From an uncultured Thermoplasmata archaeon (GTDB taxonomy: Archaea > Thermoplasmatota > DTKX01 > GCA-020343715), in NCBI GenBank assembly GCA_965369625.1, contig CBDUQW010000003.1:9883-73882 (forward strand): a stretch of 64,000 nt of DNA, written 5' to 3'. Shown here one piece after another: positions 19,177-57,332 of this stretch; position 1 is the first letter of the stretch, and every line of letters starts with the position of its first letter. The notes under the pieces were generated by a model, which was not told where the DNA came from, made no database searches, and worked only from the letters and a program-made list of their open reading frames with translations. Both the position numbers and the translations under genes were made by a program.

Positions 19177-19206
19177 TGGACCATGCCAGCGACACCTCGC
19201 GGGTTG

Positions 19207-25399: not shown

Positions 25400-25914
25400 T
25401 TACCCCCCTTCTTAACCAAGTCGAAGAAACCGGTTTCCTTCATTATCTTCAGGACGACCTCCTGGTTCTTCTTGTTGGAAAGTACCGTGGGCGGGGTCTC
25501 GGCCAACCCCAGGGCCTTGCGGGCCTTCATCATGGGCTCCTTGAGCGGGACCATGTGACCCGTCTTTGCCAGCGCCCTTCCGACGCGGATGTGTTGTTCT
25601 TGCATGTATCCCGCCTCCACGGCCATGTTCCGCATGACCATGACTATGTCCGTCACCTCGACCCCTCGCGGGCACCGCTCCTGGCACGTGTAGCACGTGG
25701 TGCACATCCAAAGGTCCTCGGATGCGAGGACCTTGTCAGCGATGCCCAGCTGGGCCCATCGGATGAGCTTCCGGATCCTGAAGGCCGTCTGACGCCCCGA
25801 GGGACAGCTCCCGGTGCAGGTCCCGCACTGGAAGCATCGTAAAAGAGTCGTTCCACCCCGCTCTATGATCTGCTGGGGGAACTTGTTATCAGGTTTGAAT
25901 ACTGCTTCACCCAT
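25396..25914 (-). CDS. hdrC: Heterodisulfide reductase subunit C (2x[4Fe-4S] ferredoxin-like)
   Basis: It has CFQCGTCTGSCPSG and CTTCYTCQERCPRGV. Confidence 0.92.
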   Translation of the reverse strand: MGEAVFKPDNKFPQQIIERGGTTLLRCFQCGTCTGSCPSGRQTAFRIRKLIRWAQLGIADKVLASEDLWMCTTCYTCQERCPRGVEVTDIVMVMRNMAVEAGYMQEQHIRVGRALAKTGHMVPLKEPMMKARKALGLAETPPTVLSNKKNQEVVLKIMKETGFFDLVKKGGK

Positions 25915-27443: not shown

Positions 27444-27641
27444 GACCGTGAATCGCTTCCAAGATATCTTAGCTTTGCCCCATTGTATTTGTATAGCATG
27501 ATATATCTCATACCCCCAAGTTTGGTTCGAGACTCCGTCAATCTAAAAATATATGCCCCATTTCTTAGAGTGCATGAGCAGTGTAAAATAATCGATTGGG
27601 TTTGGTACTGGGGGTAAACCCAACGCGGATTCTCTCAAGGG

Positions 27642-27650
27642 TTTAAATAA
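27642..27650 (+). promoter_or_regulatory. Candidate TATA box for the 19.4-kb hdr/mvh operon
   Basis: TTTAAATAA lies 68 nt upstream of the hdrA start. It is flanked by a GGGTTT...AAACCC inverted repeat (27599-27622). Confidence 0.45.
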
Positions 27651-27717
27651 GATACTGGAGCCCTCGTCACGGAGTGTCACGGTAGCGTTATAACCCCATT
27701 GGGTCTACATCCCAGCG

Positions 27718-29727
27718 GTGGTCAGCGCTAGGGTGGTGCAGAGCTTGACGAAGTTAAGGATCGGAGTATACGTTTGCCATTGCGGTCACAACATCGGCGG
27801 TGTCGTCGATTCCCACGGGGTGGCGGAGTACGCGAAAGGCCTGGAAGGGGTTGTCGTTGCAAGGGACAACAAGTACACTTGCTCCGACCGTGGACAGGAC
27901 GAGATCAAGGTCGACATAAAGAAGCACAAGCTGAACAGGGTGGTCGTCGCCTCCTGCTCACCGAACCTCCACGAGAGGACATTCAGGAGGACGGTGGCGG
28001 ATGCCGGGCTCAACCCGTACCTTTTCCAAATGGTCAACATCCGTGAACAGGTCTCGTGGGTCCACGCTGACGATCACGACGCGGCGACCCGGAAGGCCAA
28101 GGACCTTGTCCGTATGGGTGTGGCGAGAGTGAGGTTGCTGGAGCCCCTCAAGGACCGGCGGGTGGAAATGGAGAGGTCGGTGATGGTCGTCGGCGGGGGT
28201 ATCTCGGGTATTGAGGCATCGCTACAGCTGGCGGCGCTGGGCATCAAGAGCTACCTGGTCGAGAAGACCCCAAGCATCGGCGGCCGGATGGCCCAGCTGG
28301 ACAAGACCTTCCCCACGACGGACTGCTCGATATGCATCCTTGCCCCCAAGATGGTGGAGGTGGCCTCCGAACCCAACATCGAACTGCTCACCTACACCGA
28401 GGTCGAGAACATCGAGGGTTACATCGGCAACTTCACCGTCACCCTCAGGAAGAAGGCCCGACACGTCGACCTGGACAAGTGCATCGGGTGCGGATCGTGC
28501 TCGGATGTGTGCCCGGTCGAGGTCCCCTCCGAGTTCGACATGGAGGTCGGCAACCGCAAGGCCGCCTACATACCGTTCCCCCAGGCCGTGCCGATAAAGT
28601 ACACCATAGACGAGGCCAACTGCCTCTACTTCAAGACCGGCAAGTGCCAGTTGTGCGTCGAGGCATGTCCCACCGATGCCATCGAGCACGACACCACCGA
28701 CGAGCTGGTGGACATCAAGGTGGGGTCCATCGTGCTGGCCACCGGTTTCGACCCGTACAAGCCCATGATCTCCGATTACCTGGGCTACGGAGAGTATCCC
28801 AACGTGATCACCGCGATGGAGTTCGAGCGGATCATCAACGCGTCGGGACCCACCAAGGGGCATGTCCTCAGGCCCTCGGACGGGAAGGTCCCCAAGACCT
28901 TCGCCTTCATCCAGTGTGTGGGGTCCCGGAACAGGAAGATCGGAAACGAGTACTGCTCGAACGTGTGCTGTATGTACACGATGAAGAACGCCCAGCTGAT
29001 CAAGGAGCACTACCCCGACGCAGTGGTGACGGTGTACTACATCGACATCCGTGCCCATGGCAAGGGCTTCGAGGAGTACTACCACCGACTCCGTGAGAAC
29101 TACCAGATCGAATACATCCGTGGCAGGCCGGCGAAGGTCTGGCAGAACGAGAGGACCAAGAACATCACCATCCGGGCCGAGGAGACCCTCCTCAACCTGA
29201 TCACCCAGAGGGAGTTCGACCTGGTCATCCTGTCCGTGGGCCTCGTTCCCGCAGAAGGCACCGACCAGCTCGTTAAAATGCTCAACCTGTCCAAGAGCAC
29301 CGACGGGTTCCTCCAGGAGGCACATCCCAAGCTCCGACCGGTGGAGACCACCACGGCAGGCGTCTTCCTAGCGGGGTGCGTCCAGGGACCCAAGGACATC
29401 CCCTCCTGCGTCGCCCAGGCCAGGGCGGCCGCCGCGGCTGCCGCTGGACCCATCCTGAAGGGCGAGTACGCCATCGAACCCCTGGTCGCCCAGGTCGACC
29501 AGGACAAGTGCATGGGCTGCGGCCTGTGCGTCGAAGTGTGCCCCTACGGGGCTCCCAGGCTCGTGGACCAGGAGGTTGGCCAGAAGGCGGAGATCCTTGA
29601 GGTGCTCTGCAGAGGTTGTGGCACGTGCGTGGCGGCATGCCCCTACCACGCCATCACCGCGGAGCAGTTCTCCGACGAACAGCTGGAACATGAGCTGATG
29701 GCCGCGCTCGAAGTGGAGGTGAAGTAG
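27718..29727 (+). CDS. hdrA: Heterodisulfide reductase subunit A, canonical architecture
   Basis: The N-terminal cluster domain is IGVYVCHCGHNIGGVVD ... VVASCSP. The FAD site is VVGGGISGIEASL. The HdrA signature is GGRMAQLDKTFPTTDCSIC. The inserted ferredoxin has CIGCGSCSDVCP and CQLCVEACP. It also has FIQCVGSRN..YCSNVCCMY and a C-terminal ferredoxin (CMGCGLCVEVCP, CRGCGTCVAACP). The exact start is uncertain. Confidence 0.92.
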   Translation: MVSARVVQSLTKLRIGVYVCHCGHNIGGVVDSHGVAEYAKGLEGVVVARDNKYTCSDRGQDEIKVDIKKHKLNRVVVASCSPNLHERTFRRTVADAGLNPYLFQMVNIREQVSWVHADDHDAATRKAKDLVRMGVARVRLLEPLKDRRVEMERSVMVVGGGISGIEASLQLAALGIKSYLVEKTPSIGGRMAQLDKTFPTTDCSICILAPKMVEVASEPNIELLTYTEVENIEGYIGNFTVTLRKKARHVDLDKCIGCGSCSDVCPVEVPSEFDMEVGNRKAAYIPFPQAVPIKYTIDEANCLYFKTGKCQLCVEACPTDAIEHDTTDELVDIKVGSIVLATGFDPYKPMISDYLGYGEYPNVITAMEFERIINASGPTKGHVLRPSDGKVPKTFAFIQCVGSRNRKIGNEYCSNVCCMYTMKNAQLIKEHYPDAVVTVYYIDIRAHGKGFEEYYHRLRENYQIEYIRGRPAKVWQNERTKNITIRAEETLLNLITQREFDLVILSVGLVPAEGTDQLVKMLNLSKSTDGFLQEAHPKLRPVETTTAGVFLAGCVQGPKDIPSCVAQARAAAAAAAGPILKGEYAIEPLVAQVDQDKCMGCGLCVEVCPYGAPRLVDQEVGQKAEILEVLCRGCGTCVAACPYHAITAEQFSDEQLEHELMAALEVEVK

Positions 29728-29728
29728 C

Positions 29729-30316
29729 ATGACCGGTGAGACCGAGCAGACCTTCATCGGAGCCTCCAAGACGACCATCGTCGAGGAGAAGGTCATCCTC
29801 GACGAGGAGTACGACCCGAATTTCGCCGCCGAGATCGTCAAGTACGGTGGGCGCGACGTCAAGACCTGTCACCAGTGCGGGAACTGCACCGGTGTCTGCC
29901 CTTACAGCCTCAAGACCGCCTACAAGACGCGCAACATCATCAAGATGTGCCAGCTGGGCCTCAAGAGCCTGGTGCTCCATACACCCTGGCTTTGTGCCAC
30001 ATGCTACCGTTGCTACGAGCACTGCCCCGAGGACATCAACGCCGCGGAGGTCATGATCGCACTGCGCCACATAGCCATCCGAGACGGGAACATCCCCGAT
30101 TTCATCGTCCGGGTGAGCAAGAACGTCGTCAAGTACGGTCAGAGCATCGCACCATCGCGAGAGGTGGAGGTGCTACGCGAGCAGCTAGAGCTGGGACCCC
30201 TGCCGTACGCCCGACCGAAGCACGCAAAGAACATCACCGAGATCCAGCACATCATAAGGGCTACGGGCTACGACGAGCTGATACACATCAGTGCCAGACC
30301 TGAGGAGGATGAGTGA
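29729..30316 (+). CDS. hdrC: Heterodisulfide reductase subunit C (divergent, 195 aa)
   Basis: It has CHQCGNCTGVCP and CATCYRCYEHCPEDI. It starts 1 nt after the hdrA stop. Confidence 0.88.
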   Translation: MTGETEQTFIGASKTTIVEEKVILDEEYDPNFAAEIVKYGGRDVKTCHQCGNCTGVCPYSLKTAYKTRNIIKMCQLGLKSLVLHTPWLCATCYRCYEHCPEDINAAEVMIALRHIAIRDGNIPDFIVRVSKNVVKYGQSIAPSREVEVLREQLELGPLPYARPKHAKNITEIQHIIRATGYDELIHISARPEEDE

Positions 30317-31241
30317 CATGACCTACGGACTCTTCATGGGATGCCTCATCCCCAACCGTTACCCCGGCATCGAGTGGGCGACCGAGTTCCTCCTCAATAA
30401 AAAGCAGCTCAACGTGCATGCTGACAGGATCGATGACTTCACCTGTTGTCCGGTCCCGGGCATCTTCTACTCCGCGGACAAGGAGACCTGGCTGGCGCTG
30501 GCGGCACGCAACCTCGTGTTGGCCCAGGAGAACGAGAAGGAGATCCTCACCCTGTGCAACGGATGCTACATGTCGCTGCACAAGGCTTCCGAGAAGCTAC
30601 AGGACCCGAAGCAGCGGTCGAGGACGAACAAGGTGCTGAAGGGAGTGGGCAAGCGCTACGTCGGTGAGGAGATCCCCACGGAAGGGCGTGTCAAGCAGTA
30701 CCGGCCCATCCAGGTCAAGCACCTGGTCGAGATCCTCATCCACGACGTGGGCCTCGAGAAGCTGGAGGAGAAGTTGGTCCATCCCCTCACGGGCCTCCGG
30801 GTGGCCGTGCACTACGGTTGCCATTACCTACGCCCCTCCGAGAACCACCAGATCGAGAACCCCAACCGACCCAGGTACATCGACGACATCGTCAAGGCGT
30901 GCGGCGCCACGTCGGTGGATTACGACGAGAAGCTCTCCTGCTGTGGTGCCGGCGGGGGCGTCCGCTCCCATGTCAAGGAGCTGGCCGACGCCCTCACCGA
31001 CGACAAGATAAAGAGCATCACCAAGGCAAGGGCCGACGTCATCGTGACCCCATGTCCCTTCTGCCTGCTGCAGTTCGATACGGCCCAGTCATCGCTTCCA
31101 GGGGTCAACATCCCCGCCATCCACCTCTCGAGCTTCGTGGCCCTCGCCTTGGGAGCCGACCCGCTGTTCCTGGGCTTCGACCTGCACAACATCTCGGTCA
31201 ATCCGCTGCTTCGGAAGCTGCGAAGGGGGGCGATAGCGTGA
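30309..31241 (+). CDS. hdrB: Heterodisulfide reductase subunit B (divergent, with an insertion)
   Basis: ATG 30309 follows GGAGG and overlaps the hdrC stop. It has FMGCLIPNRYPGIE, TCCPVPG, LCNGC, SCCGAGGG and PCPFCLLQF. Confidence 0.88.
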   Translation: MSDMTYGLFMGCLIPNRYPGIEWATEFLLNKKQLNVHADRIDDFTCCPVPGIFYSADKETWLALAARNLVLAQENEKEILTLCNGCYMSLHKASEKLQDPKQRSRTNKVLKGVGKRYVGEEIPTEGRVKQYRPIQVKHLVEILIHDVGLEKLEEKLVHPLTGLRVAVHYGCHYLRPSENHQIENPNRPRYIDDIVKACGATSVDYDEKLSCCGAGGGVRSHVKELADALTDDKIKSITKARADVIVTPCPFCLLQFDTAQSSLPGVNIPAIHLSSFVALALGADPLFLGFDLHNISVNPLLRKLRRGAIA

Positions 31242-31714
31242 CCGGGAAGGCGAAGGAGTCTGGGAAGAAGGAGGCCGCCGCCGTCGAGGGATTCGACCCG
31301 AGGGTGATAATCTTCGCATGCAACTGGTGCTCGTACTCGGGCGCCGACCTTGCAGGCACCTCCCGATACCAGTATGCGCCGAACGTGCGCATCATCCGTG
31401 TCATGTGCTCTGGCCGTGTGGACCCCAGCCTCATCCTGAAGGCGCTGCGGAACGGCGCCGACGGAGTGCTGGTATCGGGCTGCCATCCTGCAGACTGCCA
31501 CTACATCAACGGGAACCAGAAGGCCGAGGTCCGGGTATCCTTCCTCAAGCGCTTCCTTCCCCACGTGGGCATCGACCCCCGGAGGCTCCGCCTGGAGTGG
31601 ATATCCGGGTCGGAGGGCGAGCTGTTCGCCCGGATCGCCACCACCTTCACAGAGGAGATCCGGGAACTCGGACCCAACCCCCTGACCGGGGACGACGTGC
31701 CGGAGGTGAGGTAG
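31238..31714 (+). CDS. mvhD: MvhD-type [2Fe-2S] electron-transfer protein (D0, plain)
   Basis: A GTGA overlap joins it to hdrB. It has ACNWCSYSGADLAG, VMCSGRVDP and GCHPADCHY. The track ORF (from 30818) is a run-on in an alternative frame of hdrB. Confidence 0.88.
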   Translation: MTGKAKESGKKEAAAVEGFDPRVIIFACNWCSYSGADLAGTSRYQYAPNVRIIRVMCSGRVDPSLILKALRNGADGVLVSGCHPADCHYINGNQKAEVRVSFLKRFLPHVGIDPRRLRLEWISGSEGELFARIATTFTEEIRELGPNPLTGDDVPEVR

Positions 31715-34700
31715 ATGGCGGACAAGGCGATCGGGGCTGTGATGGTGGTCGGCGGAGGCATCGCTGGCACGCAAGCGGCCCTCGACCTGGCCGACGGCGG
31801 CTTCAAGGTCTATGTCATCGAGCGCAGCCCCTCCATCGGAGGCGTGATGGCGCAATTGGACAAGACCTTCCCGACCAACGACTGCTCGATGTGCATCCTG
31901 GCCCCGAAACTGGTGGACGCGGGAAGGCACCCCAACATCGAGCTCAAGATCCTCTCCGAGGTGACGGGGTTCAAGGGCAAGCCAGGTAACTTCAAGGTGG
32001 AGCTCACCCGGAAGACCCTCTCCGTCGACGAGGACAAGTGCACGGGCTGCGGCGAGTGCGCCGACATATGCCCTGTGGAGGGGACGAACCCCTTCGACGA
32101 GAACATCGGCGTCCGGAAGGCCATCTACGTGCCCTTCCCCCAGGCTGTGCCCCTGGTCTACACCATCGACAGGAGCATGTGCATAGGCTGCGGCGAGTGC
32201 GAGAAGTTCTGCGGGGCCAACGCCATCGTGTACGAGATGGAGGAGACGGTCACGGAGTCCATCAAGGTGGGCGCTGTCATCCTGGCCCCCGGCTTCGAGG
32301 AGTTCGACCCTTCGAAGCTCACCGCCTACGGATACAAGGACTTCCCCAACGTGGTCACCTCCATCGAGTTCGAGCGGATGATGAGCGCCTCGGGTCCCAC
32401 GGGCGGGCACATCCTCAGGCCCTCCGACGGCAGGACCCCCGATAACGTCGCCTTCCTACACTGCATCGGTTCGCGCGACGTCAGCCTGGGGATCACCTAC
32501 TGCTCTTCCGTCTGCTGCATGTACTCCCTCAAGGAGGCCATCATCGCCCAGGAGCACACACCGGGCCTCAAGACCCACCTGTTCGCGATGGACTTCCGCG
32601 CGGTGGGCAAGCAGTTCGAGGAATACAGGATCCGCGCCGAGAACGATCTGGGCATCAAGATCACAAGGAACAACCGCGTCGGTTCACTCGAGGAGGACCC
32701 CGTGACCCGGAAGCTCACGGTCAGGTACATCGAGGGGGACCATATATTGGACGAGGAGTTCGACATGGTCGTGCTCAGCGTCGGGCTGCGTCCCCCCATA
32801 AACGGTGACTACCTGGCACGCACCTTCGGGGTGGAGCTCAACGAGCACGGGTTCACCGCCCACTCCACGTTCAAGCCCCTCGAGACCAACGTCCCCGGGG
32901 TCTTCGTGGCCGGGGCCTTCAGATCGCCCAAGGACATCCCGGATACGGTGGCCGAGGCCTCCGGCGCCGCAGCCCTGGCCGCTGCGGTCGTGGTGGAGGG
33001 TCGAGGCGACCTCGTCACCGAGGTCGAGTACCCCGAGGAACGGGATGTCGAGGGCCAGGAGGCGCGTGTCGGGGTCTTCGTGTGCCACTGCGGCACCAAC
33101 ATCGGTGGTGTGGTCGACGTGCCCGGTGTCACGGAGTACGCCCGGGGCCTTCCTGGAGTGGTCTTCGCCGATGACAACCTATACACCTGCTCCCAGGACA
33201 CCAACAAGTACATCGCGAACATGATCAGGGAGCACGACCTCAACCGGGTCGTCGTGGCATCGTGCACACCCCGCACCCACGAGCCCCTGTTCCGGCAGAC
33301 GCTGAAGGAGGCCGGGCTCAACCCCTACCTTTTCGAGATGGCCAACATCCGGGACCACTGCTCGTGGATCCACATGCACGAGCCGAACGAGGCCACCGAG
33401 AAGTCCAAGGACCTGGTGCGTATGACCGTAGCGAAGGCCCGACTGCTGGAACCTCTCCAGAAGCACCGCATCCCCATCACGCCAAGGGCGCTGGTGATCG
33501 GCGGGGGACTTTCAGGCATGACAGCGGCCCTGGAGATCGCGGAGCAGGGTTTCGAGGTGGACCTCGTCGAGAAGACCAACGCCCTTGGTGGCAACCTTCG
33601 GAGGGTGACCCACAGCATCACTGGCGAGAAACCCCAGGACATCCTCAAGGAGACCATCGCTGCCATCAACGAACAGAGGCTCATAACCCTCCACACGGGT
33701 ACCGAGATCGAGATACTGAGCGGGTACATGGGCAACTTCGACGTGGTCCTCAAGGACGGAACCGCAATGAAGGTGGGGGCCATCATCGTCGCCAGCGGCG
33801 CCATCGAGTACAAGCCGACGGAGTACTACTACGGCAAGAACCCGAATGTCATCACCCAGCTGGAGCTGGAGGAGGAGATGACCAAGGGCGCCTTCGCCCC
33901 CAAGAACGTGGTCATCATCCAATGCGTAGGAGCCCGCGATGAGAACCATCCGAACTGCAGCCGCATCTGCTGCACCACGTCGGTGAAGAACGCCATCGCG
34001 CTCAAGAGGGCCAACATGAACACCAATGTCTACATCATCTACAAGGACATCCGGACCTACGGTTTCAACGAGGACGCGTACCTGGAGGCGGCCCGGCTCG
34101 GGGTCGTCTTCGCCCGCTACAGTGACGAGTCGAAACCCAAGCTCTCCTACACCAAGAAGGGTCTGGTCTTCCGCGTCCTTGACCGGTTCACCAACACCGA
34201 GATCACCATCGTCCCGGACCTGGTGGTCCTCAACGCTGCAACCCATCCCGACCCCAAGAACAAGGTGCTGGCCGGGTTGCTCAAGGTGCCCCTCACCCAT
34301 GAGGGGTACTTCCTGGAGGCCCACATGAAGCTGCGCCCAGTGGAGTTCGCCACCGACGGTATCTTCGCATGCGGCCTGGCACTGGGTCCGAAGTTCATCA
34401 GCGAGTCCATCAACCAGGCGACGGCGGCGGCGGGGAAGGTGGCGGCGGTGCTCTCCAAGGAGTTCGCCGAGGCCGAGGCCAACACCGCCGAGGTTGACGC
34501 CGAGATCTGCACCGGCTGCGGTACCTGCATCCAGGTGTGCCCGTACAGTGCCATCGAGCGGGGCGAGGACCGCAAGGCGGTGGTGAACGCCGTCCTGTGC
34601 AAGGGCTGCGGCACATGCGTGGCGACCTGCCCCGAGAAGGCCATCGACATCCATCACTTCACCAACGAGCAGCTGTACCAACAGGCCATCGCCCTCATCC

Positions 34701-34720
34701 AGAACGGAGGTGGTGCATGA
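31715..34720 (+). CDS. Long two-module HdrA-like flavoprotein L1 (1001 aa)
   Basis: The domain order is FAD module A with inserted ferredoxin, an internal HdrA N-domain-like cluster domain, FAD module B, then a C-terminal 2x[4Fe-4S] ferredoxin. Module A has VVGGGIAGTQAAL, GGVMAQLDKTFPTNDCSMC, CTGCGECADICP, CIGCGECEKFC and CIGSRD..YCSSVCCMY. The internal domain is VGVFVCHCGTNIGGVVD..VVASCTPRTHEPLF..NIRDHCSW. Module B has VIGGGLSGMTAAL and IIQCVGARD..CSRICC. The C-terminal ferredoxin has CTGCGTCIQVCP and CKGCGTCVATCP. Confidence 0.88.
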   Translation: MADKAIGAVMVVGGGIAGTQAALDLADGGFKVYVIERSPSIGGVMAQLDKTFPTNDCSMCILAPKLVDAGRHPNIELKILSEVTGFKGKPGNFKVELTRKTLSVDEDKCTGCGECADICPVEGTNPFDENIGVRKAIYVPFPQAVPLVYTIDRSMCIGCGECEKFCGANAIVYEMEETVTESIKVGAVILAPGFEEFDPSKLTAYGYKDFPNVVTSIEFERMMSASGPTGGHILRPSDGRTPDNVAFLHCIGSRDVSLGITYCSSVCCMYSLKEAIIAQEHTPGLKTHLFAMDFRAVGKQFEEYRIRAENDLGIKITRNNRVGSLEEDPVTRKLTVRYIEGDHILDEEFDMVVLSVGLRPPINGDYLARTFGVELNEHGFTAHSTFKPLETNVPGVFVAGAFRSPKDIPDTVAEASGAAALAAAVVVEGRGDLVTEVEYPEERDVEGQEARVGVFVCHCGTNIGGVVDVPGVTEYARGLPGVVFADDNLYTCSQDTNKYIANMIREHDLNRVVVASCTPRTHEPLFRQTLKEAGLNPYLFEMANIRDHCSWIHMHEPNEATEKSKDLVRMTVAKARLLEPLQKHRIPITPRALVIGGGLSGMTAALEIAEQGFEVDLVEKTNALGGNLRRVTHSITGEKPQDILKETIAAINEQRLITLHTGTEIEILSGYMGNFDVVLKDGTAMKVGAIIVASGAIEYKPTEYYYGKNPNVITQLELEEEMTKGAFAPKNVVIIQCVGARDENHPNCSRICCTTSVKNAIALKRANMNTNVYIIYKDIRTYGFNEDAYLEAARLGVVFARYSDESKPKLSYTKKGLVFRVLDRFTNTEITIVPDLVVLNAATHPDPKNKVLAGLLKVPLTHEGYFLEAHMKLRPVEFATDGIFACGLALGPKFISESINQATAAAGKVAAVLSKEFAEAEANTAEVDAEICTGCGTCIQVCPYSAIERGEDRKAVVNAVLCKGCGTCVATCPEKAIDIHHFTNEQLYQQAIALIQNGGGA

Positions 34721-35532
34721 TGACCCCACCCGCAAAGGCAAAGGGGAAGGCCGCGGATGCGGCATCGTGGGAACCTCGGATAGTCGCGTTCTGCTGCAAC
34801 TGGTGCTCCTACGCCGGGGCAGACCTGGCGGGCGTCTCAAGGGTCCAGATGCCCACGAGCTTCCGCATGATCCGGATCATGTGCTCCGGCAGGATCGACC
34901 CCGAGCTCTGCGTAAGGCTCCTGCGGGAGGGTCTGGACGGTGTGCTGGTCCTGGGTTGCCATCCCGGGGACTGCCACTACATCGAGGGCAACTACTTCGC
35001 CGAGATCAAGATGGAGTGGGCCCGGCACTTGCTGGACAAGACGGCGTTCGGTAGCGGGAGGGTCCTCCTGGACTGGGTATCGGCCTCAGAGGACCAGCTC
35101 TTCGCCTCCATAGTCACGGATTTCATCGACTCCGTCAAGGAGATGGGCCCGAACCCGATAGACGATGCAGGGAGCCAGGAAATGCGGGACGAGCTGGATG
35201 CGGTCCTCATGACCCTGTCCGACTTCCGCCTCCGTGCCCTCATGGGCAAGGTCAGGACCATCCGGGACAACGGGAACGTGTACGGCGAGAACGTCCGTCG
35301 CAGCGAGCTGGACGCCCTGGTCGGGGACGCTGTGGAATCAGAGTTCCTGCGGAACGCCATCCTCGTCCTCGCAAGGGAGAAGGACATGTCCGTCCCGCAG
35401 CTCGCCCAGCGGTTGGACCGCGACCCCCAGGTGATCATGAAGCAGGTGGTACGCCTCAGGCAGCGGAACGCCCTCGAGTTCACGACTATCAAAGGGAACG
35501 ATCCCTACTACAAGACCATGGGAGGTTTCTAA
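34717..35532 (+). CDS. MvhD domain fused to a roughly 120-aa C-terminal helical plus winged-helix-like extension (D1-X)
   Basis: An ATGA overlap joins it to L1. The core has CCNWCSYAGADLAG, IMCSGRIDP and GCHPGDCHY. The extension (nt 35167-35532) has ..LSDFRLRALMGKVRTIRDNGNVYGE.. followed by DMSVPQLAQRLDRDPQVIMKQVVRLRQRNALEFTTIKGNDPYYK. Confidence 0.85.
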   Translation: MMTPPAKAKGKAADAASWEPRIVAFCCNWCSYAGADLAGVSRVQMPTSFRMIRIMCSGRIDPELCVRLLREGLDGVLVLGCHPGDCHYIEGNYFAEIKMEWARHLLDKTAFGSGRVLLDWVSASEDQLFASIVTDFIDSVKEMGPNPIDDAGSQEMRDELDAVLMTLSDFRLRALMGKVRTIRDNGNVYGENVRRSELDALVGDAVESEFLRNAILVLAREKDMSVPQLAQRLDRDPQVIMKQVVRLRQRNALEFTTIKGNDPYYKTMGGF

Positions 35533-35533
35533 C

Positions 35534-38500
35534 ATGACGGCCAAGGACAAGGTCGGCGCGGTGATGGTCGTCGGGGGCGGCATCTCCGGGATGCAGTCCT
35601 CCCTCGACCTTGCAGAATCGGGTTTCAAGGTGTACCTGTTGGACAACAAGCCCACCATCGGAGGCGCCATGGCCCAGCTGGACAAGACCTTCCCGACCAA
35701 CGACTGCTCGATGTGCATCATGGCACCGAAGCTGGTGGAGGTCGGACGGCACGAGAACATCGAGATCGTCACCAACGCAAACGTGTCCTCGGTGGACGGC
35801 GATGTGGGGGCCTTCACCGTCACGCTGACGAAGACCCCGAGGCGCGTGGACGAGGAACTTTGCACCGGGTGCGGCATATGCTCCCAGAAGTGCCCCGTCG
35901 AGGCCATCGACATGTACAACGAGGGCCTCATGGCCCGCGCCGCCATCTACGTCGACTACCCGCAAGCGGTGCCCCTCAAGTTCCACATCGACAAGGAGCG
36001 CTGCATAGGATGCGGCATATGCGAGGGCGAGTGCCCCGCCGGTGCCATCCTCTACGACCAGGCCGAGGAGATCATGAAGCTCAAGGTGGGTTCCATCATC
36101 CTGTCCCCGGGTTTCGACGAGTTCGACCCCACCCCCCTCAGGGAGTACGGCTACGGGCGGTACCCGAACGTCGTGTCCTCCATCGAGTTCGAGCGCATGC
36201 TGTCGGCGTCCGGACCCTTCCGCGGCCTTGTCATGAGACCCTCCGATGGGAAGGTCCCCGAGAAGGTGGCCTTCATCCAGTGCGTGGGGTCGCGGGACGA
36301 GCACATCGGCCACAACTACTGCTCGTCGGTGTGCTGCATGCACGCCATCAAGGAGGCGATGATCGCCCAGGAACACACCGAGGGCCTGTCCTCCCACATA
36401 TTCTTCATGGACATCAGGGCCTTCGGCAAGGAGTTCGACGACTACGTCACCCGGGCCCGCGACGAGTTCGGAATCGGCATCACCCGGGGCAACCGTGTGG
36501 CCGACATCACCCAGAATCCCAAGACCAAGGACCTGCGGGTGCGTTACATCGAGGGTGGCGACATCAAGTACGAGAGGTTCAACCTCGTCGTGCTGTCCGT
36601 GGGCCTCCACGCCCCCAGGACGGCGAAGGACCTGTCGACTGCCTTCGGTATCGAGCTCAACCAGTACAACTTCGTGGACACCAAGACCTTCTCCCCCCTG
36701 GAGACCAACGTCCCGGGCATCTACGCTTCGGGCGCCTTCTCGGGCCCCAAGGACATCCCCACCACGGTGGCGGAGGCCTCCGGGGTGGCAGCGAAGGCCG
36801 CCGCGGACATCCATGAGGCCCGCAACACCCTCCTCACCGACGTCCAGCTCCCTCCCGAGCGTGACGTCACAGGAGAGGAACCACGCATCGGCGTGTTCGT
36901 CTGTCACTGCGGCATCAACATCGGGGGAGTCGTCGACGTACCCAGCGTGATGGAATACGCGTTGACGCTCCCCAACGTGGTGTTCTCGGACGCCAACCTC
37001 TACACCTGCTCCCAGGACACCCAGGAGCGCATACGGGAGATGGTGGAGGAGCATGACCTCAACCGCGTCATCGTCGCCTCGTGCACGCCCCGCACCCACG
37101 AGCCGCTGTTCAGGAACACCGTCAGGGAGGCAGGGCTCAACCCGTACCTCTTCGAGATGGCGAACATCCGGGACCAGTGCTCGTGGGTCCACATGCACGA
37201 GCCCGAGGCAGCCACCCTGAAGTCCAAGGAGCTGGTGAGGATGGCCGTTGCCAAGGCCCGGTTGCTCGAACCCCTGGAGAAGGCCTCCATCCCCGTGACC
37301 AACAGGGCCCTTGTCATCGGGGGCGGCGTGTCCGGCATGACCGCGGCCCTCGACATCGCGGACCAGGGTTTCACCACGTACCTGGTGGAACGCGAGAAGA
37401 AGCTCGGTGGCATTGCGAGGCGCCTCTATACCACGATAAGGGGCGACAACGTGAAGGCCGAGCTGGAGGAGATGGTGACCAGGGTCAAGGAGCACCCGAA
37501 CATCGAGCTGTTCCTCGACGCTGACGTGGACCACATCGACGGGACCGTGGGGAACTTCCTGACCATGCTGAAGGGCCATGAGGAGGCCCTCGAGCACGGC
37601 GTCGTTGTCATCGCCACCGGTGGCGTGGAGTACGAGCCCGAGGAGTACCTGTACGGGAAGGACGAACGTGTCGTCACCCAGCTCCAGTTCGAGGAGGAGC
37701 TGGCGAAGACCAAGGCCAAGAACCTCCCCTCGACGGCCGTCTTCATCCAGTGCGTGGGTTGCAGGAACGAGGAACGGCCCTACTGCAGCCGCGTGTGCTG
37801 CGGTTCCAGCGTGAAGCAGGCGCTCCTGCTCAAGGGGAAGTGCCCCGACGCCCAGGTGTTCGTGCTGTACCGCGACCTACGGACCTATGCCTTCAAGGAG
37901 GACGCCTACAGGGAGGCCGCGGAGGCGGGTGTGATCTTCATCCGCTTCGACGAGGACAGGGAGCCCAAGGTATCGAAGGGCAAGTCGAAGGACGCCCCCC
38001 TCGTGGTGACGGTCTACGAGGAGCTGCTGGAGGAGAACATCAGGATCGATGCGGACCGCATCATCCTGGCGGCTGCCATACTCCCGCCCGAGGGGAACGA
38101 GCGGATGGCCCAGCTGCTCAAGCTCCCCCTCTCCAAGGACGGGTTCTTCCTGGAGGCCCACATGAAGCTTCGCCCCCTGGACTTCGCCACCGACGGGGTC
38201 TTCCTCGCCGGCCTCGCCCACTCACCGAAGTACATCGAGGAGAGCATGGCACAGGCATCCGGCGCGGCGGCGAGGGCCGTCACCATTCTTTCGAAGGACA
38301 CGCTGCTCGCCGAGGGCGTGATCTCCTCCATCGATGCCGAGAAGTGCACCGGCTGCGGCACTTGCATCGAACTATGCCCCTACAGCGCCATCGAGCGGAC
38401 GGAGGATGACAAGGCCCATGTGATCGAGGTGCTCTGCAAGGGCTGCGGGATATGTGCGGCCAGCTGTCCCGAGCGGGCCATCGACATCCGGGGCTTCACC

Positions 38501-38554
38501 CTTGAACAGATAATCGCACAGATGTCGTCCGTGATGAACGGGGGAGGGATGTGA
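35534..38554 (+). CDS. Long two-module HdrA-like flavoprotein L2 (1006 aa)
   Basis: It has the same domain order and motifs as L1 (VVGGGISGMQSSL, DKTFPTNDCSMC, IGVFVCHCGINIGGVVD, VIGGGVSGMTAAL, CTGCGTCIELCP, CKGCGICAASCP). Confidence 0.88.
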   Translation: MTAKDKVGAVMVVGGGISGMQSSLDLAESGFKVYLLDNKPTIGGAMAQLDKTFPTNDCSMCIMAPKLVEVGRHENIEIVTNANVSSVDGDVGAFTVTLTKTPRRVDEELCTGCGICSQKCPVEAIDMYNEGLMARAAIYVDYPQAVPLKFHIDKERCIGCGICEGECPAGAILYDQAEEIMKLKVGSIILSPGFDEFDPTPLREYGYGRYPNVVSSIEFERMLSASGPFRGLVMRPSDGKVPEKVAFIQCVGSRDEHIGHNYCSSVCCMHAIKEAMIAQEHTEGLSSHIFFMDIRAFGKEFDDYVTRARDEFGIGITRGNRVADITQNPKTKDLRVRYIEGGDIKYERFNLVVLSVGLHAPRTAKDLSTAFGIELNQYNFVDTKTFSPLETNVPGIYASGAFSGPKDIPTTVAEASGVAAKAAADIHEARNTLLTDVQLPPERDVTGEEPRIGVFVCHCGINIGGVVDVPSVMEYALTLPNVVFSDANLYTCSQDTQERIREMVEEHDLNRVIVASCTPRTHEPLFRNTVREAGLNPYLFEMANIRDQCSWVHMHEPEAATLKSKELVRMAVAKARLLEPLEKASIPVTNRALVIGGGVSGMTAALDIADQGFTTYLVEREKKLGGIARRLYTTIRGDNVKAELEEMVTRVKEHPNIELFLDADVDHIDGTVGNFLTMLKGHEEALEHGVVVIATGGVEYEPEEYLYGKDERVVTQLQFEEELAKTKAKNLPSTAVFIQCVGCRNEERPYCSRVCCGSSVKQALLLKGKCPDAQVFVLYRDLRTYAFKEDAYREAAEAGVIFIRFDEDREPKVSKGKSKDAPLVVTVYEELLEENIRIDADRIILAAAILPPEGNERMAQLLKLPLSKDGFFLEAHMKLRPLDFATDGVFLAGLAHSPKYIEESMAQASGAAARAVTILSKDTLLAEGVISSIDAEKCTGCGTCIELCPYSAIERTEDDKAHVIEVLCKGCGICAASCPERAIDIRGFTLEQIIAQMSSVMNGGGM
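36248..36609 (+). repeat. 362-bp block 100% identical to 50153-50514 (L2 versus L4)
   Basis: I compared the two stretches base by base and found no mismatch. The flanks are similar but clearly diverged. Confidence 0.9.
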
Positions 38555-38555
38555 G

Positions 38556-39341
38556 ATGACGAAGGACAAGTTCGAACCGAGGATCATCGGATACCTGTGC
38601 AACTGGTGCAGCTACGCGGGGGCGGACCTGGCGGGCGTGAGCCGGTTCCAGTATCCCACGAACATCCGAGCGATAAGGGTGATGTGCTCCGGTCGGCTGG
38701 ACCCGGTAGTCATCCTGGAGACCTTCATCCGGGGGGCCGATGGCGTCATGATCGGGGGCTGCCACCTCGGCGACTGCCACTACATGGACGGGAACCACCA
38801 GGCCCAGCGGAAGATCTGGCTCACCCATGCCATTATGGAGCGTGCTGGGTTCGATCCCGCGAGGCTGAGGCTCGAGTGGATCTCCGCGTCCGAGGGCGAC
38901 CGTTTCGCCGAGGTCGTGAGCGACTTTACTGACCAGCTGACCAAGATGGGTCCCTCGCCCATCAAGGGCGAGAGGACGGACCCGGAGGTCCTTGAACGCA
39001 TCAGGGCCGCCCAGCGGGTGGTGGAGGACTTCCGCATCCGGGCGCTGATATCCAAGGAGTACAAGCTTACCACCGAGGGCAACGTCTATGGGGAGGTCCT
39101 CGAGGAGGACTACGTCAAGGACACCATCCTCGAGGCGATGGACGCCGAGTACGTCCGCAACCAGATCCTCATCCAGACCACGGACAAGGCCATGTCGGTC
39201 AAGGAGATCGCCAGCGCCATCGACGTTCCCTCCCCGAACGTGCTCAACCACGTGGTGCGGCTACGGCAGAAGAACCTCTTGACCCTTGCATCCATCGATG
39301 AGACAACCCCCAGGTACAAGGCAATGGGAGGAGGGATGTGA
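38556..39341 (+). CDS. MvhD domain fused to the C-terminal helical plus winged-helix-like extension (D2-X)
   Basis: It has LCNWCSYAGADLAG, VMCSGRLDP and GCHLGDCHY. The extension is ..FRIRALISKEYKLTTEGNVYGE.. AMSVKEIASAIDVPSPNVLNHVVRLRQKNLLTLASIDETTPRYK. Confidence 0.85.
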   Translation: MTKDKFEPRIIGYLCNWCSYAGADLAGVSRFQYPTNIRAIRVMCSGRLDPVVILETFIRGADGVMIGGCHLGDCHYMDGNHQAQRKIWLTHAIMERAGFDPARLRLEWISASEGDRFAEVVSDFTDQLTKMGPSPIKGERTDPEVLERIRAAQRVVEDFRIRALISKEYKLTTEGNVYGEVLEEDYVKDTILEAMDAEYVRNQILIQTTDKAMSVKEIASAIDVPSPNVLNHVVRLRQKNLLTLASIDETTPRYKAMGGGM

Positions 39342-42300
39342 AGATGACTGATGACAAGAAGGCCGGGAGCGGGAAGGGCCCCATCGGCTCCGTGATGGTC
39401 GTCGGGGGCGGCATCTCCGGGATGCAGTCGTCCCTGGACCTGGCGGATTCGGACATCCTCGTCTACCTGGTGGACAACAAGCCGACCATCGGCGGCGTGA
39501 TGGCACAGCTGGACAAGACCTTCCCGACCAACGACTGCGCCATGTGCATCATGGCCCCGAAACTGGTGGCCACGGGTCGACACCACAACATCCAGCTGAT
39601 AACCAACACGGACATCAGGTCCTGCGAGGGCGAGCCTGGCAACTTCAAGGTGACGCTGACCCAGAATCCCAGGAGGGTCGACCCGGAAAAGTGCACCGGT
39701 TGTGGCGTTTGCGCCCTGAAGTGCACCGTGGAGGCCATCGACGCCTTCCAGGAGAACACCATGCAGCGGGGAGCGATATACGTGGACTACCCGCAGGCCG
39801 TTCCCCTCGTCTACAAGATCGACCGGGACCGCTGCATAGGTTGCGGCGTCTGCGAGGGCGAGTGCAAGGCCAAGGCGATAGTCTACGACGAGGAGGAGAA
39901 GGAGATCGTCCTCAACGTGGGGTCCATCATCCTGTCCCCGGGTTTCGACGAGTTCGAACCGGGCAGGCTGACCGAGTACGGCTACGGTCGCTACCTCAAC
40001 GTGCTCAGCAGCATAGAGTTCGAGCGTCTCCTCTCCGCCACCGGACCCCACCGCGGCCTCGTGCTGCGCCCGTCGGACGGTGACATACCGAAGAAGGTGG
40101 CGTTCCTTCAGTGCGTGGGCTCCCGCGACGACCGCATCGATGCGGGCTTCTGCTCGTCGGTGTGCTGCATGTACTCCCTCAAGGAGGCCGTCATCGCCCA
40201 GGAGCACACCCCTGGGCTCTCCGCCCACATCTTCTTCATGGACGTTCGCGCCTTCGGCAAGGAGTTCGACGATTACGTCACCCGTGCCCAGAACGAGTTC
40301 CACATCGGTATCACCCGCCACACGCGCGTCCCGCAGGTGACGGAGGTCCCCGGGTCCCGAAACCTCATGCTCAGCTACATAGAGAAGGGAGAGCTCAGGG
40401 AGGAGGAGTTCGACATGGTGGTGCTGGCCGTGGGACTCCACGCCCCCAAGTCCGCCGGGATGATATCGGATGCCTTCGGCATCGACCTGAACAAGTACAA
40501 CTTCGCCGCAACGGGCACCTTCTCGCCCCTCGAGACCTCCCGCCCCGGTGTCTTCGTCAGCGGTGCCTTCTCGGGCCCCAAGGACATCCCCACCACGGTG
40601 GCAGAGGCCTCCGGGGCCGCCGGCAAGGCCCAGGAGATCATTTCATCGGCCAGGGGGACCCTGGTGACCGAGAAGGAGTTCCCACCCGAGATCGATGTGA
40701 TCGACCAGGAACCACGCATCGGCGTGTTCGTATGTCACTGTGGCATAAACATCGGCGGCGTGGTGGACGTGCCGGGTGTCGTGGAGTACGCCAAGACCCT
40801 CCCGGGGGTGGTGTACTCGGAGCACAACCTCTACACCTGCTCACAGGACACACAGGAGCGCATCCAGGAGCTCATCGGGGAGCATGACCTCAACAGGGTC
40901 ATCGTCGCCTCGTGCACGCCCCGGACCCACGAGCCCCTGTTCCAGAACACCATCCGCGAGGGGGGCCTCAACCGCTACCTGTTCGAGATGGCCAACATCC
41001 GGGACCAGTGCTCCTGGATCCACATGCACATGCCCGCAGAGGCCACTAGGAAGTCCAAGAGCCTCGTGCGGATGGCGGTGGCGAAGGCCACGTACCTCGA
41101 ACCCCTGGAGACCGCTGAGATCCCCGTCACCAGGGCCGCCCTGGTCCTCGGGGGCGGGCTCACCGGCCTGACCGCCGCCCTGAGCCTCGGGGAGCAGGGT
41201 TTCACGACCTACCTGGTGGAACGGGAGAAGGAGCTGGGCGGGAACCTGCGCAGGATCCGGACCACGGTGACCGGGGAGGACCCGCAGGCCAAGCTGAAGG
41301 AGCTGGTGGCCGCCGTCAAGAAGGAGCCCAACATCGAGCTCATAACGGGGGCGGAGATCGAGAACATGGGCGGATACGTCGGCAACTTCGAGACCCAGAT
41401 AAAGGGCCGCGAGGAGACCATCGAGACCGGTGCCATAATCATCGCCACTGGCGCCACCGAGATGAAGCCCGACGGGCTCTTCCTCTACGGCAAGGACAAG
41501 CGCGTGCTCACCCAGCTGGAGTTCGAGGGAGAGTTGGCCGACACCGGCAAGGCACCCAGTTCCGTGGTGATGATACAGTGCGTCGGCTCCCGGGAGGAGG
41601 ATAGGCCCTGGTGCAGTCGCGTCTGCTGCACCAACGCGGTGAAGAACGCCATCCGTGTGAAGGAGATGAGCCCCGACACCCCTGTCTACATACTGTACCG
41701 CGACCTCAGGACCTACGGCTTCAAGGAGGACTTCTACCGTGACGCCTCCGAACTGGGGGTCATCTTCATCCGCTTCGACGAGGACAAGCCCCCCAAGGTG
41801 AAGGCCACGTCGAAGGGCATCGCCGTGATGGTGGAGGACATGACCATGGGCAAGACCATAGGTCTTTCAGCAGACCGATTGGTCCTCAGCTCGGCCATCC
41901 TCCCCCAGGATGACAACGAGCTCATCGCCCAGTTCCTGAAGGTGCCTTTAAGCAAGGACGGCTTCTTCCTCGAGGCCCACATGAAGCTGCGCCCGGTGGA
42001 CTTCGCCACCGAGGGTGTCTACCTAGCAGGGCTCTGCCATTCCCCCAAGTTCATCGATGAGAGCATCGCCCAGGCCGTCGGCGCGGTGGCCAGGGCGGTG
42101 ACCATCATTTCGAAGGAGACACTGACCAGCGAGGGCATCATCGCCATGGTCAACGAGGACATCTGCGACGGGTGCGGCATCTGCCGGCCCATCTGCGAGT
42201 ACAACGCCATCGAGATAGACGACGAGAAGAAGCTCGCCATCATCAACGAGGGGCTGTGCAAGGGTTGTGGCGCCTGCGTGGGCGCGTGCCCGTCAGGCGC

Positions 42301-42385
42301 CATGGAGCAGAAGGGGTACAAGGACAACCAGCTGGTGGCGATGATCGAAGCTGCCCTAGAGGACATCGAAGAGGAGGTGATCTGA
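39338..42385 (+). CDS. Long two-module HdrA-like flavoprotein L3 (1015 aa)
   Basis: A GTG start overlaps the D2-X stop (ATG 39344 is an alternative). The motif set matches L1 and L2. The C-terminal ferredoxin has CDGCGICRPICE and CKGCGACVGACP. Confidence 0.88.
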   Translation: MKMTDDKKAGSGKGPIGSVMVVGGGISGMQSSLDLADSDILVYLVDNKPTIGGVMAQLDKTFPTNDCAMCIMAPKLVATGRHHNIQLITNTDIRSCEGEPGNFKVTLTQNPRRVDPEKCTGCGVCALKCTVEAIDAFQENTMQRGAIYVDYPQAVPLVYKIDRDRCIGCGVCEGECKAKAIVYDEEEKEIVLNVGSIILSPGFDEFEPGRLTEYGYGRYLNVLSSIEFERLLSATGPHRGLVLRPSDGDIPKKVAFLQCVGSRDDRIDAGFCSSVCCMYSLKEAVIAQEHTPGLSAHIFFMDVRAFGKEFDDYVTRAQNEFHIGITRHTRVPQVTEVPGSRNLMLSYIEKGELREEEFDMVVLAVGLHAPKSAGMISDAFGIDLNKYNFAATGTFSPLETSRPGVFVSGAFSGPKDIPTTVAEASGAAGKAQEIISSARGTLVTEKEFPPEIDVIDQEPRIGVFVCHCGINIGGVVDVPGVVEYAKTLPGVVYSEHNLYTCSQDTQERIQELIGEHDLNRVIVASCTPRTHEPLFQNTIREGGLNRYLFEMANIRDQCSWIHMHMPAEATRKSKSLVRMAVAKATYLEPLETAEIPVTRAALVLGGGLTGLTAALSLGEQGFTTYLVEREKELGGNLRRIRTTVTGEDPQAKLKELVAAVKKEPNIELITGAEIENMGGYVGNFETQIKGREETIETGAIIIATGATEMKPDGLFLYGKDKRVLTQLEFEGELADTGKAPSSVVMIQCVGSREEDRPWCSRVCCTNAVKNAIRVKEMSPDTPVYILYRDLRTYGFKEDFYRDASELGVIFIRFDEDKPPKVKATSKGIAVMVEDMTMGKTIGLSADRLVLSSAILPQDDNELIAQFLKVPLSKDGFFLEAHMKLRPVDFATEGVYLAGLCHSPKFIDESIAQAVGAVARAVTIISKETLTSEGIIAMVNEDICDGCGICRPICEYNAIEIDDEKKLAIINEGLCKGCGACVGACPSGAMEQKGYKDNQLVAMIEAALEDIEEEVI

Positions 42386-42828
42386 TGGCCGCTGCCACGG
42401 ACAAGAAGGCGGATGACAACACCTTCCGCCCGAGGATCATCGTCTTTTGCTGCAACTGGTGCTCCTACGCGGGCGCGGACCTGGCTGGCGTGAGCCGGCT
42501 CCAGATGCCCTCGGACTTCAGGGTCATCAGGGTGATGTGCTCGGGTCGTGTCGACCCCGAGCACATCCTCAAGGCCTTCTCCCTGGGCGCCGACGGGATC
42601 CTCGTGGCGGGCTGCCACCCGGCGGACTGCCACTACATCGGCGGCAACTACAGGACCCGTCGTCGCATCCCGTTGCTCCAGATCATGATCGAGCAGTTCG
42701 GGATGGACAGGTCCAGGCTGCAGCTGGAGTGGATCTCGGCCTCGGAGGGAGAACGCTTCCAGCAGGTCATCACCAACTTCATCCAGCACATCAAGGGGCT
42801 GGGCCCAAGCCCTGTAGGGGGTGGATAG
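42385..42828 (+). CDS. mvhD: MvhD-type [2Fe-2S] protein (D3, plain)
   Basis: A TGATG overlap joins it to L3. It has CCNWCSYAGADLAG, VMCSGRVDP and GCHPADCHY. It directly precedes the stand-alone X ORF and mvhGA. Confidence 0.88.
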   Translation: MAAATDKKADDNTFRPRIIVFCCNWCSYAGADLAGVSRLQMPSDFRVIRVMCSGRVDPEHILKAFSLGADGILVAGCHPADCHYIGGNYRTRRRIPLLQIMIEQFGMDRSRLQLEWISASEGERFQQVITNFIQHIKGLGPSPVGGG

Positions 42829-45740: not shown

Positions 45741-45768
45741 GGGGTGACGGTTGGTTGGGGTGGTGAAG

Positions 45769-57169: not shown

Positions 57170-57332
57170 GACGACACACCCGGCAGCAAGGCCTGTTGTT
57201 ATGTTGTCATCGCCACGGCTCGTGAAACGGTCGTTCCCATCGCAGGCGATCGGTCGCTGCATATCCTCGAGGGATGGAGGTAGCGAACCTCCCAACCCTG
57301 TAAGCACCCTAGCATCGAGCGCCATCACCCCC

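Follow-up and report, generated by a model that had tools for sequence, protein, structure and literature searches.

A predicted winged-helix domain appended to MvhD proteins, in fused and split form, in an hdr/mvh supercluster of an uncultured Thermoplasmata archaeon

We analysed a stretch of 64,000 nucleotides from a contig of an uncultured Thermoplasmata archaeon, called the window below, which carries a hydrogenase/heterodisulfide-reductase (mvh/hdr) supercluster. The analysis concerned the segment 35167-35532, which a first-pass annotation made from the sequence alone had flagged as an unfamiliar C-terminal extension of an MvhD protein. The flagged segment corresponds to amino acids 151-271 of this protein, D1, and belongs to a C-terminal domain that we call domain X. 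Translations and Pfam matches showed that the + strand from 27.7 to 47.1 kb forms a single long hdr/mvh operon in the order hdrA, hdrC, hdrB, D0, HdrL1, D1, HdrL2, D2, HdrL3, D3, a free X open reading frame (ORF), mvhG, mvhA, hdrC and hdrB, where D denotes MvhD proteins and HdrL fused double HdrA proteins. A second operon starts from 48622 and contains D4, HdrL4, an MvhD::HdrC::HdrB fusion and two more HdrA-like ORFs. The features of the two operons were as follows.

27718-29727, + strand: HdrA of canonical length, operon head (Pfam)
29729-30316, + strand: HdrC, operon head (Pfam)
30291-31241, + strand: HdrB, operon head (Pfam)
31238-31714, + strand: D0, plain MvhD between HdrB and HdrL1 (translation CNWCSYSGADLAG...GCHPADCHY)
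31715-34720, + strand: HdrL1, fused double HdrA of 1001 amino acids directly 5' of D1 (two Pyr_redox_2/FAD cores and Fer4)
34717-35148, + strand: MvhD/FlpD core of D1, amino acids 1-144 (PF02662, PDB MvhD matches)
35149-35532, + strand: domain X of D1, predicted helical hairpin, GNVYGE loop and winged helix (AlphaFold2, Foldseek)
35534-38554, + strand: HdrL2, fused double HdrA between D1 and D2 (Pfam)
38556-39341, + strand: D2, MvhD with domain X at about 38952-39341 (PF02662 and sub-threshold HTH_20)
39338-42385, + strand: HdrL3, fused double HdrA between D2 and D3 (Pfam)
42382-42828, + strand: D3, plain MvhD without extension (PF02662, 181 bits)
42821/42830-43216, + strand: stand-alone X gene between D3 and mvhG (full-length alignment to fused X; HTH_5, 22.1 bits)
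43221-44228, + strand: MvhG, [NiFe]-hydrogenase small subunit (PF01058)
44229-45740, + strand: MvhA, [NiFe]-hydrogenase large subunit (PF00374)
45751-46278, + strand: second HdrC, after mvhGA (Fer4_8)
46283-47140, + strand: second HdrB, after mvhGA (CCG domains)
48622-49449, + strand: D4, MvhD with domain X at about 49054-49449, opening the second operon (PF02662 and sub-threshold MarR_2)
49439-52468, + strand: HdrL4, fused double HdrA 3' of D4 (Pfam)
52468-54108, + strand: MvhD::HdrC::HdrB fusion after HdrL4 (PF02662, Fer4_8 and CCG in a single ORF)

Each of these MvhD copies abutted a long HdrA, and mvhGA and hdrCB were found in the same operon. The HdrL1/D1 and HdrL2/D2 gene pairs overlapped or adjoined, the GTG start codon of D0 (31238) overlapped the hdrB stop, and the ATG start codon of the MvhD::HdrC::HdrB fusion (52468) overlapped the HdrL4 stop. 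HdrL1 matched HdrA in the PDB (5odc_A) with E=4e-218 in 3 stretches.

The family PF02662 was matched by D1, D2, D4 and D3 with 157, 170, 109 and 181 bits, respectively, at a gathering cut-off of 22.3. In D1, D2 and D4 the match spanned about amino acids 10-145 (22-144 in D1) and was followed by the C-terminal extension of about 120-130 amino acids, domain X. PDB MvhD chains were matched with E=1e-27 to 1e-45, and the best matches of D1, 9sw2_D and 5odc_D, ended at about amino acid 149 of the query. The cysteines of the CCNWC, MCSG and GCHxGDC motifs, assigned as cluster-binding by sequence, were complete in D1, D2 and D3; C27, C56, C81 and C86 (D1 numbering) were invariant or nearly so across 36 MvhD-X proteins. 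By sequence, the window proteins are bona fide members of the MvhD family. The D4 core lacked only the NWC cysteine and read CCKRAAAADARLAR where the other cores read CCNWCSYAGADLAG. This position may correspond to selenocysteine 19 (Sec19) of the adaptor BamF described below, and the relay of D4 may be redox-inactive or altered. A loss resembling that of D4 was also found in P0010, which is 46% identical to D1 over the full length.

The four X copies aligned without internal gaps. Identity to D1-X was 56% for D4-X, 35% for D2-X and 25% for the stand-alone ORF, while R-x-R, N-V-x-G and E..R were invariant in all four. The stand-alone gene likely starts at TTG 42830, 2 nucleotides past the D3 stop, and its ortholog P0008 begins with MKKLS. 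A split between a D3-type MvhD and X, with stop and start overlapping or abutting, was also present in two relatives (L077 and L093). Because the split is kept in both, a frameshift or other sequencing artefact was ruled out as its cause. Three fused copies and one split copy of X were found within a single hydrogenase/heterodisulfide-reductase supercluster.

These results agree with much of what the first-pass annotation had described. The extension of ~120 amino acids in D1, D2 and D4 was confirmed by the translations and by PF02662 scores of 109-170 bits, and the fourth X as a separate ORF after D3 and before mvhGA by the full-length alignment. The NVYGE motif, described as conserved, was common to the three fused copies, but the stand-alone ORF has NVFGK. 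The list of MvhD proteins was right for D1 to D4 but had missed D0 (31238-31714) and the MvhD::HdrC::HdrB fusion (52468-54108). The proposed helical and winged helix-turn-helix (wHTH) fold was borne out by the structure prediction, to which we now turn.

A total of 67 X sequences were aligned, and D1-X was modelled with AlphaFold2. The model, with a predicted local distance difference test score (pLDDT) of 91.9 and a predicted template modelling score (pTM) of 0.83, contained helices at 6-23, 26-41, 51-77, 82-89 and 93-105 and a beta-hairpin at 109-123 in segment numbering. Domain X is thus modelled as a two-helix hairpin (6-41) and a loop in which GNVYGE is near-invariant, followed by a long helix, then a helix-turn-helix and a wing formed by the beta-hairpin. 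The full-length D1 model gave a pTM of 0.85, suggesting that domain X is held in a fixed orientation to the MvhD core. When the X model was compared with the PDB by Foldseek, the best matches were SmtB, AntR, NolR, HlyU and CzrA (prob 1.0, E=5e-3 to 5e-2, template modelling score 0.43-0.55), and an X profile searched against PDB sequences found the ArsR/SmtB family again (HlyU, E=3e-4). The matches covered the C-terminal ~75 amino acids of the domain. No chain of an Hdr/Mvh complex was among the Foldseek matches from the PDB set, which was without the BamF models 29QY, 29RC and 29RN.

The similarity to the ArsR/SmtB repressors was weak even at its best (hidden Markov model E ~3e-4, Foldseek E 5e-3), and unlike these repressors, X adds an N-terminal helical hairpin with the GNVYGE loop and is tied covalently or genetically to a redox enzyme. 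No Pfam or NCBIfam model recognized domain X clearly above threshold, and only weak HTH-family matches were found: the fused copies stayed below the Pfam HTH_5 and HTH_20 cut-offs (best 23.5 vs 27 bits), the stand-alone copy was borderline for HTH_5 (22.1 vs a cut-off of 22), and NCBIfam HTH_metalloreg gave 17-23 bits vs a cut-off of 55. The highest conservation was found in the hairpin (RLRxLxGK), the GNVYGE loop, E65 and R68, all outside the recognition helix, and these motifs were strongly conserved despite an overall identity of ~25%. The net charge of the whole domain was -0.9 on average. No cysteine was found in the sequences of D1-X and the stand-alone X.

To see how far domain X extends beyond the window, a profile from the four window copies was searched against 1.84 billion cluster representatives (50% identity clusters). 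It matched 291 representatives at E<=1e-3 and 153 at E<=1e-10; the latter number indicated that the X family is real and not a chance similarity. The matches came as stand-alone proteins of ~110-130 amino acids, fused proteins of ~250-270 amino acids and a few long proteins. A search with the 67-sequence profile gave 16 matches, apparently from candidate swamping. The homologue search with P0177, an MvhD-X protein of 263 amino acids, found 5672 homologues; the best 120 of them were all 216-286 amino acids long with query coverage of at least 81% (at least 94% in 117 of the 120), and were nearly always named hydrogenase iron-sulfur or delta subunit where the source gave a name. Some of these 120 had precomputed weak Pfam matches to HTH_5, HTH_24 or HTH_11, and none was a Geobacter entry. 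With 291 clusters and 5672 homologues, the idea that domain X is rare was rejected.

Genomic loci were collected with a degenerate DNA pattern (R-x-R-12-GNVYGE-17-E) from GTDB contigs representing one genome per species. The pattern matched 99 stretches, of which 94 encoded a true X. Its sensitivity was estimated at ~25-30% of the X family, so that the list of taxa is a lower bound. Among archaea, X was found in Bathyarchaeia, Asgard archaea (Promethearchaeota/Loki, Heimdall, Thor, Odin, Jord and Freya), Thermoplasmata/Methanomassiliicoccales, Methanocellales, Hadarchaeota and Thermococci, and among bacteria in Chloroflexi, Bacillota, WOR-3 and Desulfobacterota. Close relatives of the window were also seen at the DNA level: two metagenome-assembled genomes (MAGs) labelled Methanobacteriota archaeon (L049 and L052) were 92-93% identical to 33383-41458, and one Thermoplasmata MAG was 75% identical at the same comparison.

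The 94 loci carried 103 X-bearing ORFs, comprising 89 MvhD+X, one HdrA+MvhD+X and 13 X alone, some of which were cut by locus ends. Leaving edge cases aside, the downstream neighbour was HdrA-like in 86 of 97 cases and the upstream neighbour in 75 of 87. The typical archaeal unit consisted of an HdrA-like protein (~1000 amino acids, or split into 435+560), MvhD-X, another HdrA-like protein (~1000-1170 amino acids), plain MvhD, HdrC, HdrB, MvhG and MvhA. A stand-alone X followed a plain MvhD or an HdrA-MvhD fusion in the window and at four other loci (L077, L093, L011 and L063), and lay between hdrCB pairs at three (L018, L034 and L069). The MvhD-X partnership proposed by the first-pass annotation is therefore real and conserved in fused and split forms across loci. 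When each MvhD core was compared with cores of other genomes, the nearest one shared the type of the query core for 77 of 78 X-bearing and 40 of 42 plain MvhD proteins, by which the X-bearing and plain cores are distinct lineages at the sequence level.

In six Desulfobacterota loci (L030, L033, L041, L057, L088 and L089), the MvhD-X gene had an in-frame TGA at G-U-H-x-G-[DE]-C-H-Y, which probably encodes selenocysteine replacing the first cysteine of GCHxGDC. The adjoining long HdrA genes of these loci were also broken by in-frame stops.

Domain X was also found inside larger proteins. P0096 (1737 amino acids) consists of HdrA, MvhD, X and then Fer4_20/Pyr_redox_2, a GltD/NfnB-like NAD(P)H module; P0119 has a similar architecture, and L046 and P0011 provided further HdrA-MvhD-X proteins. 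Its place in the middle of such polypeptides indicated that X is a structural part of the enzyme.

The contig of P0177 (L107) gave a link to a system of known structure. In an April 2026 cryo-electron microscopy preprint on the class II benzoyl-CoA reductase (models 29QY, 29RC and 29RN), BamE is a fused HdrA dimer and BamF is an adaptor homologous to MvhD but exceeding other MvhDs in length by over 100 residues; the winged helix-turn-helix of BamF contacts BamI and thereby joins the BamGHI input arm to BamED (10.64898/2026.04.10.717634). BamF carries Sec19 near its cluster and was termed a unique relay in the preprint (10.64898/2026.04.10.717634). On L107, two AOR-family genes are followed by a 174-amino-acid Fe-S protein, a 973-amino-acid double HdrA, P0177, a GltD-like flavoprotein, HdrC and HdrB. 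The best PDB relative of the AOR-family genes was BamB of Geobacter metallireducens (4z3w_A, E=1e-115), and that of the Fe-S protein was BamC (4z3w_E, E=7e-51). Because of this order of AOR, BamC-like and double-HdrA genes, P0177 is placed, as judged from gene content, in the slot of BamF in a cluster resembling that of the class II benzoyl-CoA reductase. The alignment of D1-X with the C-terminal domain of P0177 ran from end to end (E=1e-13).

Another contig (L106, Joint Genome Institute Ga0309839_1000007), at 10001-19566, encodes MvhD-X, a double HdrA, an MvhD split at a selenocysteine codon, DUF5981 (MetV-like), methylene-tetrahydrofolate reductase (MetF), HdrC, HdrB and GcvH. From its gene content this is a MetFV-Hdr-type cluster (methylene-tetrahydrofolate reductase) that also uses X; X thus accompanies double HdrAs in at least three enzyme contexts. 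Further along the same cluster, a 131-amino-acid gene with a weak HTH_20 match directly precedes a 1483-amino-acid HdrA/GltD fusion.

Compared with BamF of the Geobacter metallireducens BamBCDEFGHI system, D1, D2 and D4 are alike in having an MvhD core with a winged-helix extension of more than 100 amino acids, and in being encoded next to double HdrAs of about 1000 amino acids, which D1 and D2, like BamF, directly follow; BamF is, according to the preprint, an adaptor or relay whose wHTH is a protein interface. The window differs in several respects. It has neither BamB/BamC (AOR) genes nor a BamGHI input module, and a Pfam scan of 36 window ORFs found no AFOR or NuoE/F/G-type domain. Its X copies are flanked by further double HdrAs, MvhAG and HdrBC. 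At the position that may correspond to Sec19, a cysteine (CNWC) is kept in D1, D2 and D3 and lost in D4. Three HdrL/MvhD(-X) units stand in tandem and a fourth lies elsewhere, with one X split off. Since BamB/BamC, BamGHI and selenocysteine are all missing from the window, the cluster is not a benzoyl-CoA reductase.

The canonical MvhD/VhuD of MvhAGD-HdrABC and Fdh-Hdr complexes (5odc, 7bkb and 9sw2) are clearly homologous to the N-terminal 140 amino acids (E=1e-42 to 1e-45) and share the [2Fe-2S] relay role beside HdrA, and plain MvhDs of this kind, D0 and D3, are also present in the window. All solved MvhD chains, however, are 129-141 amino acids long and end where X starts. Tandem HdrA homologs of more than 1000 amino acids, HdrA2 and HdrA-MvhD fusions were described in ANME and Moorella (Chadwick et al. 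2022, PMC9012536); the long HdrAs of the window are of the same fused kind and have MvhD genes alongside. In the literature found on HdrA diversity, including that paper, a C-terminal winged-helix domain of MvhD was not mentioned.

The first-pass annotation had not recognised the architecture from characterised Mvh/Hdr systems. This view is outdated, as BamF is an MvhD adaptor with a wHTH in its extension that contacts BamI, and the claim of novelty was weakened by this match to a known structural element of an HdrA/MvhD complex. The BamF-type combination of MvhD and wHTH is therefore already known from its recent description. The new element, seen from the profile and neighbourhood searches, is the extent of the BamF-type extension, which forms a domain family of large size and broad phylogenetic range tied to double-HdrA systems. 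Taken as a whole, the earlier interpretation was partly supported.

We consider it probable that domain X serves in protein-protein docking and belongs to a specialised lineage of MvhD adaptors. This reading is favoured because of the fold, the gene neighbourhood, the copy number, the mid-protein fusions, the occupancy of the BamF slot, the precedent in the preprint, the separate lineages, the conservation and charge of the domain, and the presence of a LysR regulator of the cluster's own. The four X copies, one per HdrL, match the number expected for a subunit rather than for a regulator. In the proposed arrangement, the MvhD core with its [2Fe-2S] cluster would sit on the fused double HdrA (HdrL, BamE type) as MvhD sits on HdrA, and the appended helical hairpin and winged helix would clamp a second redox module and let electrons cross to it. 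In the class II benzoyl-CoA reductase this second module is BamI of the NADH/ferredoxin input arm, and in other bacterial clusters it is probably the GltD/NfnB-like NAD(P)H flavoprotein. In the window and in most archaeal clusters, gene order suggests that X contacts the module encoded downstream, which would be the next HdrL or, for the split pair of D3 and X, MvhGA. Of the two functions offered by the first-pass annotation, docking or oligomerisation is the one that the evidence favours.

Several observations weigh against this docking reading. The window lacks a BamGHI or GltD-like partner adjoining X, so the docking partner named here is a guess. The BamF link was drawn through a BamF-slot homologue from another bacterium, the length of the extension and the described fold, and not through Geobacter BamF itself; we regard the analogy between X and the BamF extension as strong but indirect. 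The wHTH part of X has an average charge of +2.1, and the end of the recognition helix is semi-conserved and basic (VL[RK]HxxxL[RK][RQK][RK]G). In three Thermoplasmatota loci (L103-L105), an hdrACB operon opens with a stand-alone X that overlaps hdrA, a spot typical for an ArsR-type autoregulator. In a Syntrophobacteraceae MAG (L003, 1460-1861), a stand-alone X lies beside integrase and ABC transporter genes and not beside hdr, and this was the sole clear exception to the Hdr association.

A bolder extension of the docking reading, which we regard as possible but put forward tentatively, is that X daisy-chains flavin-based electron-bifurcating modules. D1-X would then link HdrL1 to HdrL2, D2-X would link HdrL2 to HdrL3, and D3 with the free X would link HdrL3 to MvhAG, giving a multi-bifurcation megacomplex.

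A close variant of the docking reading makes X a scaffold or homo-oligomerisation domain, in which X-X contacts would tie several HdrL complexes into a higher-order assembly and no other redox module is touched. The nearest folds, those of the ArsR/SmtB family, are obligate dimers, several X copies are present in the cluster, and both the canonical Mvh-Hdr complex and the class II benzoyl-CoA reductase form dimeric assemblies. The wHTH of BamF, however, was reported on BamI and not on another BamF, and a single X in mid-polypeptide before a GltD-like module suits a hetero-contact. The ArsR dimer helices alpha1 and alpha5 have no clear counterpart in X, which stops right past the wing. We therefore find self-association doubtful as the sole role of X.

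The other option of the first-pass annotation was that X couples redox state to transcription. As a DNA-binding domain, moonlighting or dedicated, MvhD-X or free X would act on hdr/mvh operators and couple the [2Fe-2S] redox state or the assembly of the complex to transcription. The ArsR/SmtB-like wHTH fold, the stand-alone copy just attaining the HTH_5 cut-off, the semi-conserved basic residues that close the recognition helix at its C terminus, the first and translationally coupled position of X in L103-L105 and the label 'biotin operon repressor' given to one homologue by Joint Genome Institute annotators are in line with such a role. A regulator, on the other hand, would hardly be expected in four copies per cluster or inside enzymes of 700-1700 amino acids, the whole domain is about neutral in charge with its top conservation outside the recognition helix, and in the only characterised relative, BamF, the wHTH serves as a protein interface. 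The cluster also has a separate regulator: a LysR-type gene (HTH_1) at 26628-27443 on the - strand, divergent from the hdrA operon.

The two candidate operator regions, 27444-27717 and 48354-48621, were AT-rich in a window of ~60% GC. The former contained an archaeal TATA-like TTTAAATA near 27643, and the latter contained a 24-nucleotide direct repeat, ATATTTTTT...ATATTGGA, present twice. A repeat search of both regions found AT-rich local repeats only, and no repeat family or inverted-repeat motif was common to the two. The fold itself was the one piece of positive evidence for the coupling to transcription. We infer that X does not bind DNA, and judge DNA binding unlikely.

That X survives as a relic of fold alone and does nothing in the enzyme, as after the chance fusion of a captured regulator gene, is very improbable: no observation speaks for it, the family and its gene position are kept in phyla of both archaea and bacteria, X-bearing MvhDs form a stable lineage of their own, and strong motifs persist at an overall identity of only about a quarter.

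Further genes of the window were noted. Two HdrA-like ORFs (53877-55436 and 55433-57169) come after the MvhD::HdrC::HdrB fusion, and the total number of MvhD domains in the window, this fusion included, was counted as seven. An extra HdrC/HdrB pair lies behind the LysR-type gene (24539-25914, - strand). Two ORFs within or adjoining the hdr clusters had no Pfam match at E<=1e-6, one of 357-358 amino acids (47277-48353, - strand) and one of 351 amino acids (57015-58070, + strand). The [NiFe]-hydrogenase maturation genes hypD and hypF were found near the mvh/hdr supercluster at 60544-61665 and 62372-63979, both on the - strand. Farther away, giant ORFs at 466-4902 (1478 amino acids) and 4903-9921 (1672 amino acids) encode beta-helix/Glucodextran_B/Ig-like surface proteins, and another at 11105-18220 (2371 amino acids) encodes an AglB/STT3 oligosaccharyltransferase fused to CarboxypepD_reg and SdrD_B repeats. 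AglB/STT3, PurP and the TTTAAATA box 5' of hdrA are archaeal markers in the window.

Double-HdrA (HdrL/BamE-type) clusters are among the commonest unexplained redox systems of uncultured anaerobes, including Asgard archaea, Bathyarchaeia, Thermoplasmata, Chloroflexi and sulfate reducers, and their electron donors and acceptors are mostly unknown. Domain X is a discrete, well-folded domain by prediction and sets apart one of the two MvhD paralogs that these clusters have, which gives an annotation handle for MvhD-X proteins that are now labelled merely 'hydrogenase iron-sulfur subunit'. At the same time, the weak HTH matches should not lead to the annotation of MvhD-X proteins as transcription factors. 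The docking reading offers a concrete and testable hypothesis for how the redox modules are wired. As X shares homology with the extension of a protein in the BamF slot, the relay BamF, called 'unique' for the benzoyl-CoA reductase, would be one instance of a widespread design. If the megacomplex proposed above exists, X would serve generally to couple the modules of double-HdrA enzymes, a very large class found in Asgard archaea, Bathyarchaeia, Thermoplasmata and anaerobic bacteria, and the contact between BamF and BamI would be merely one special case of it.

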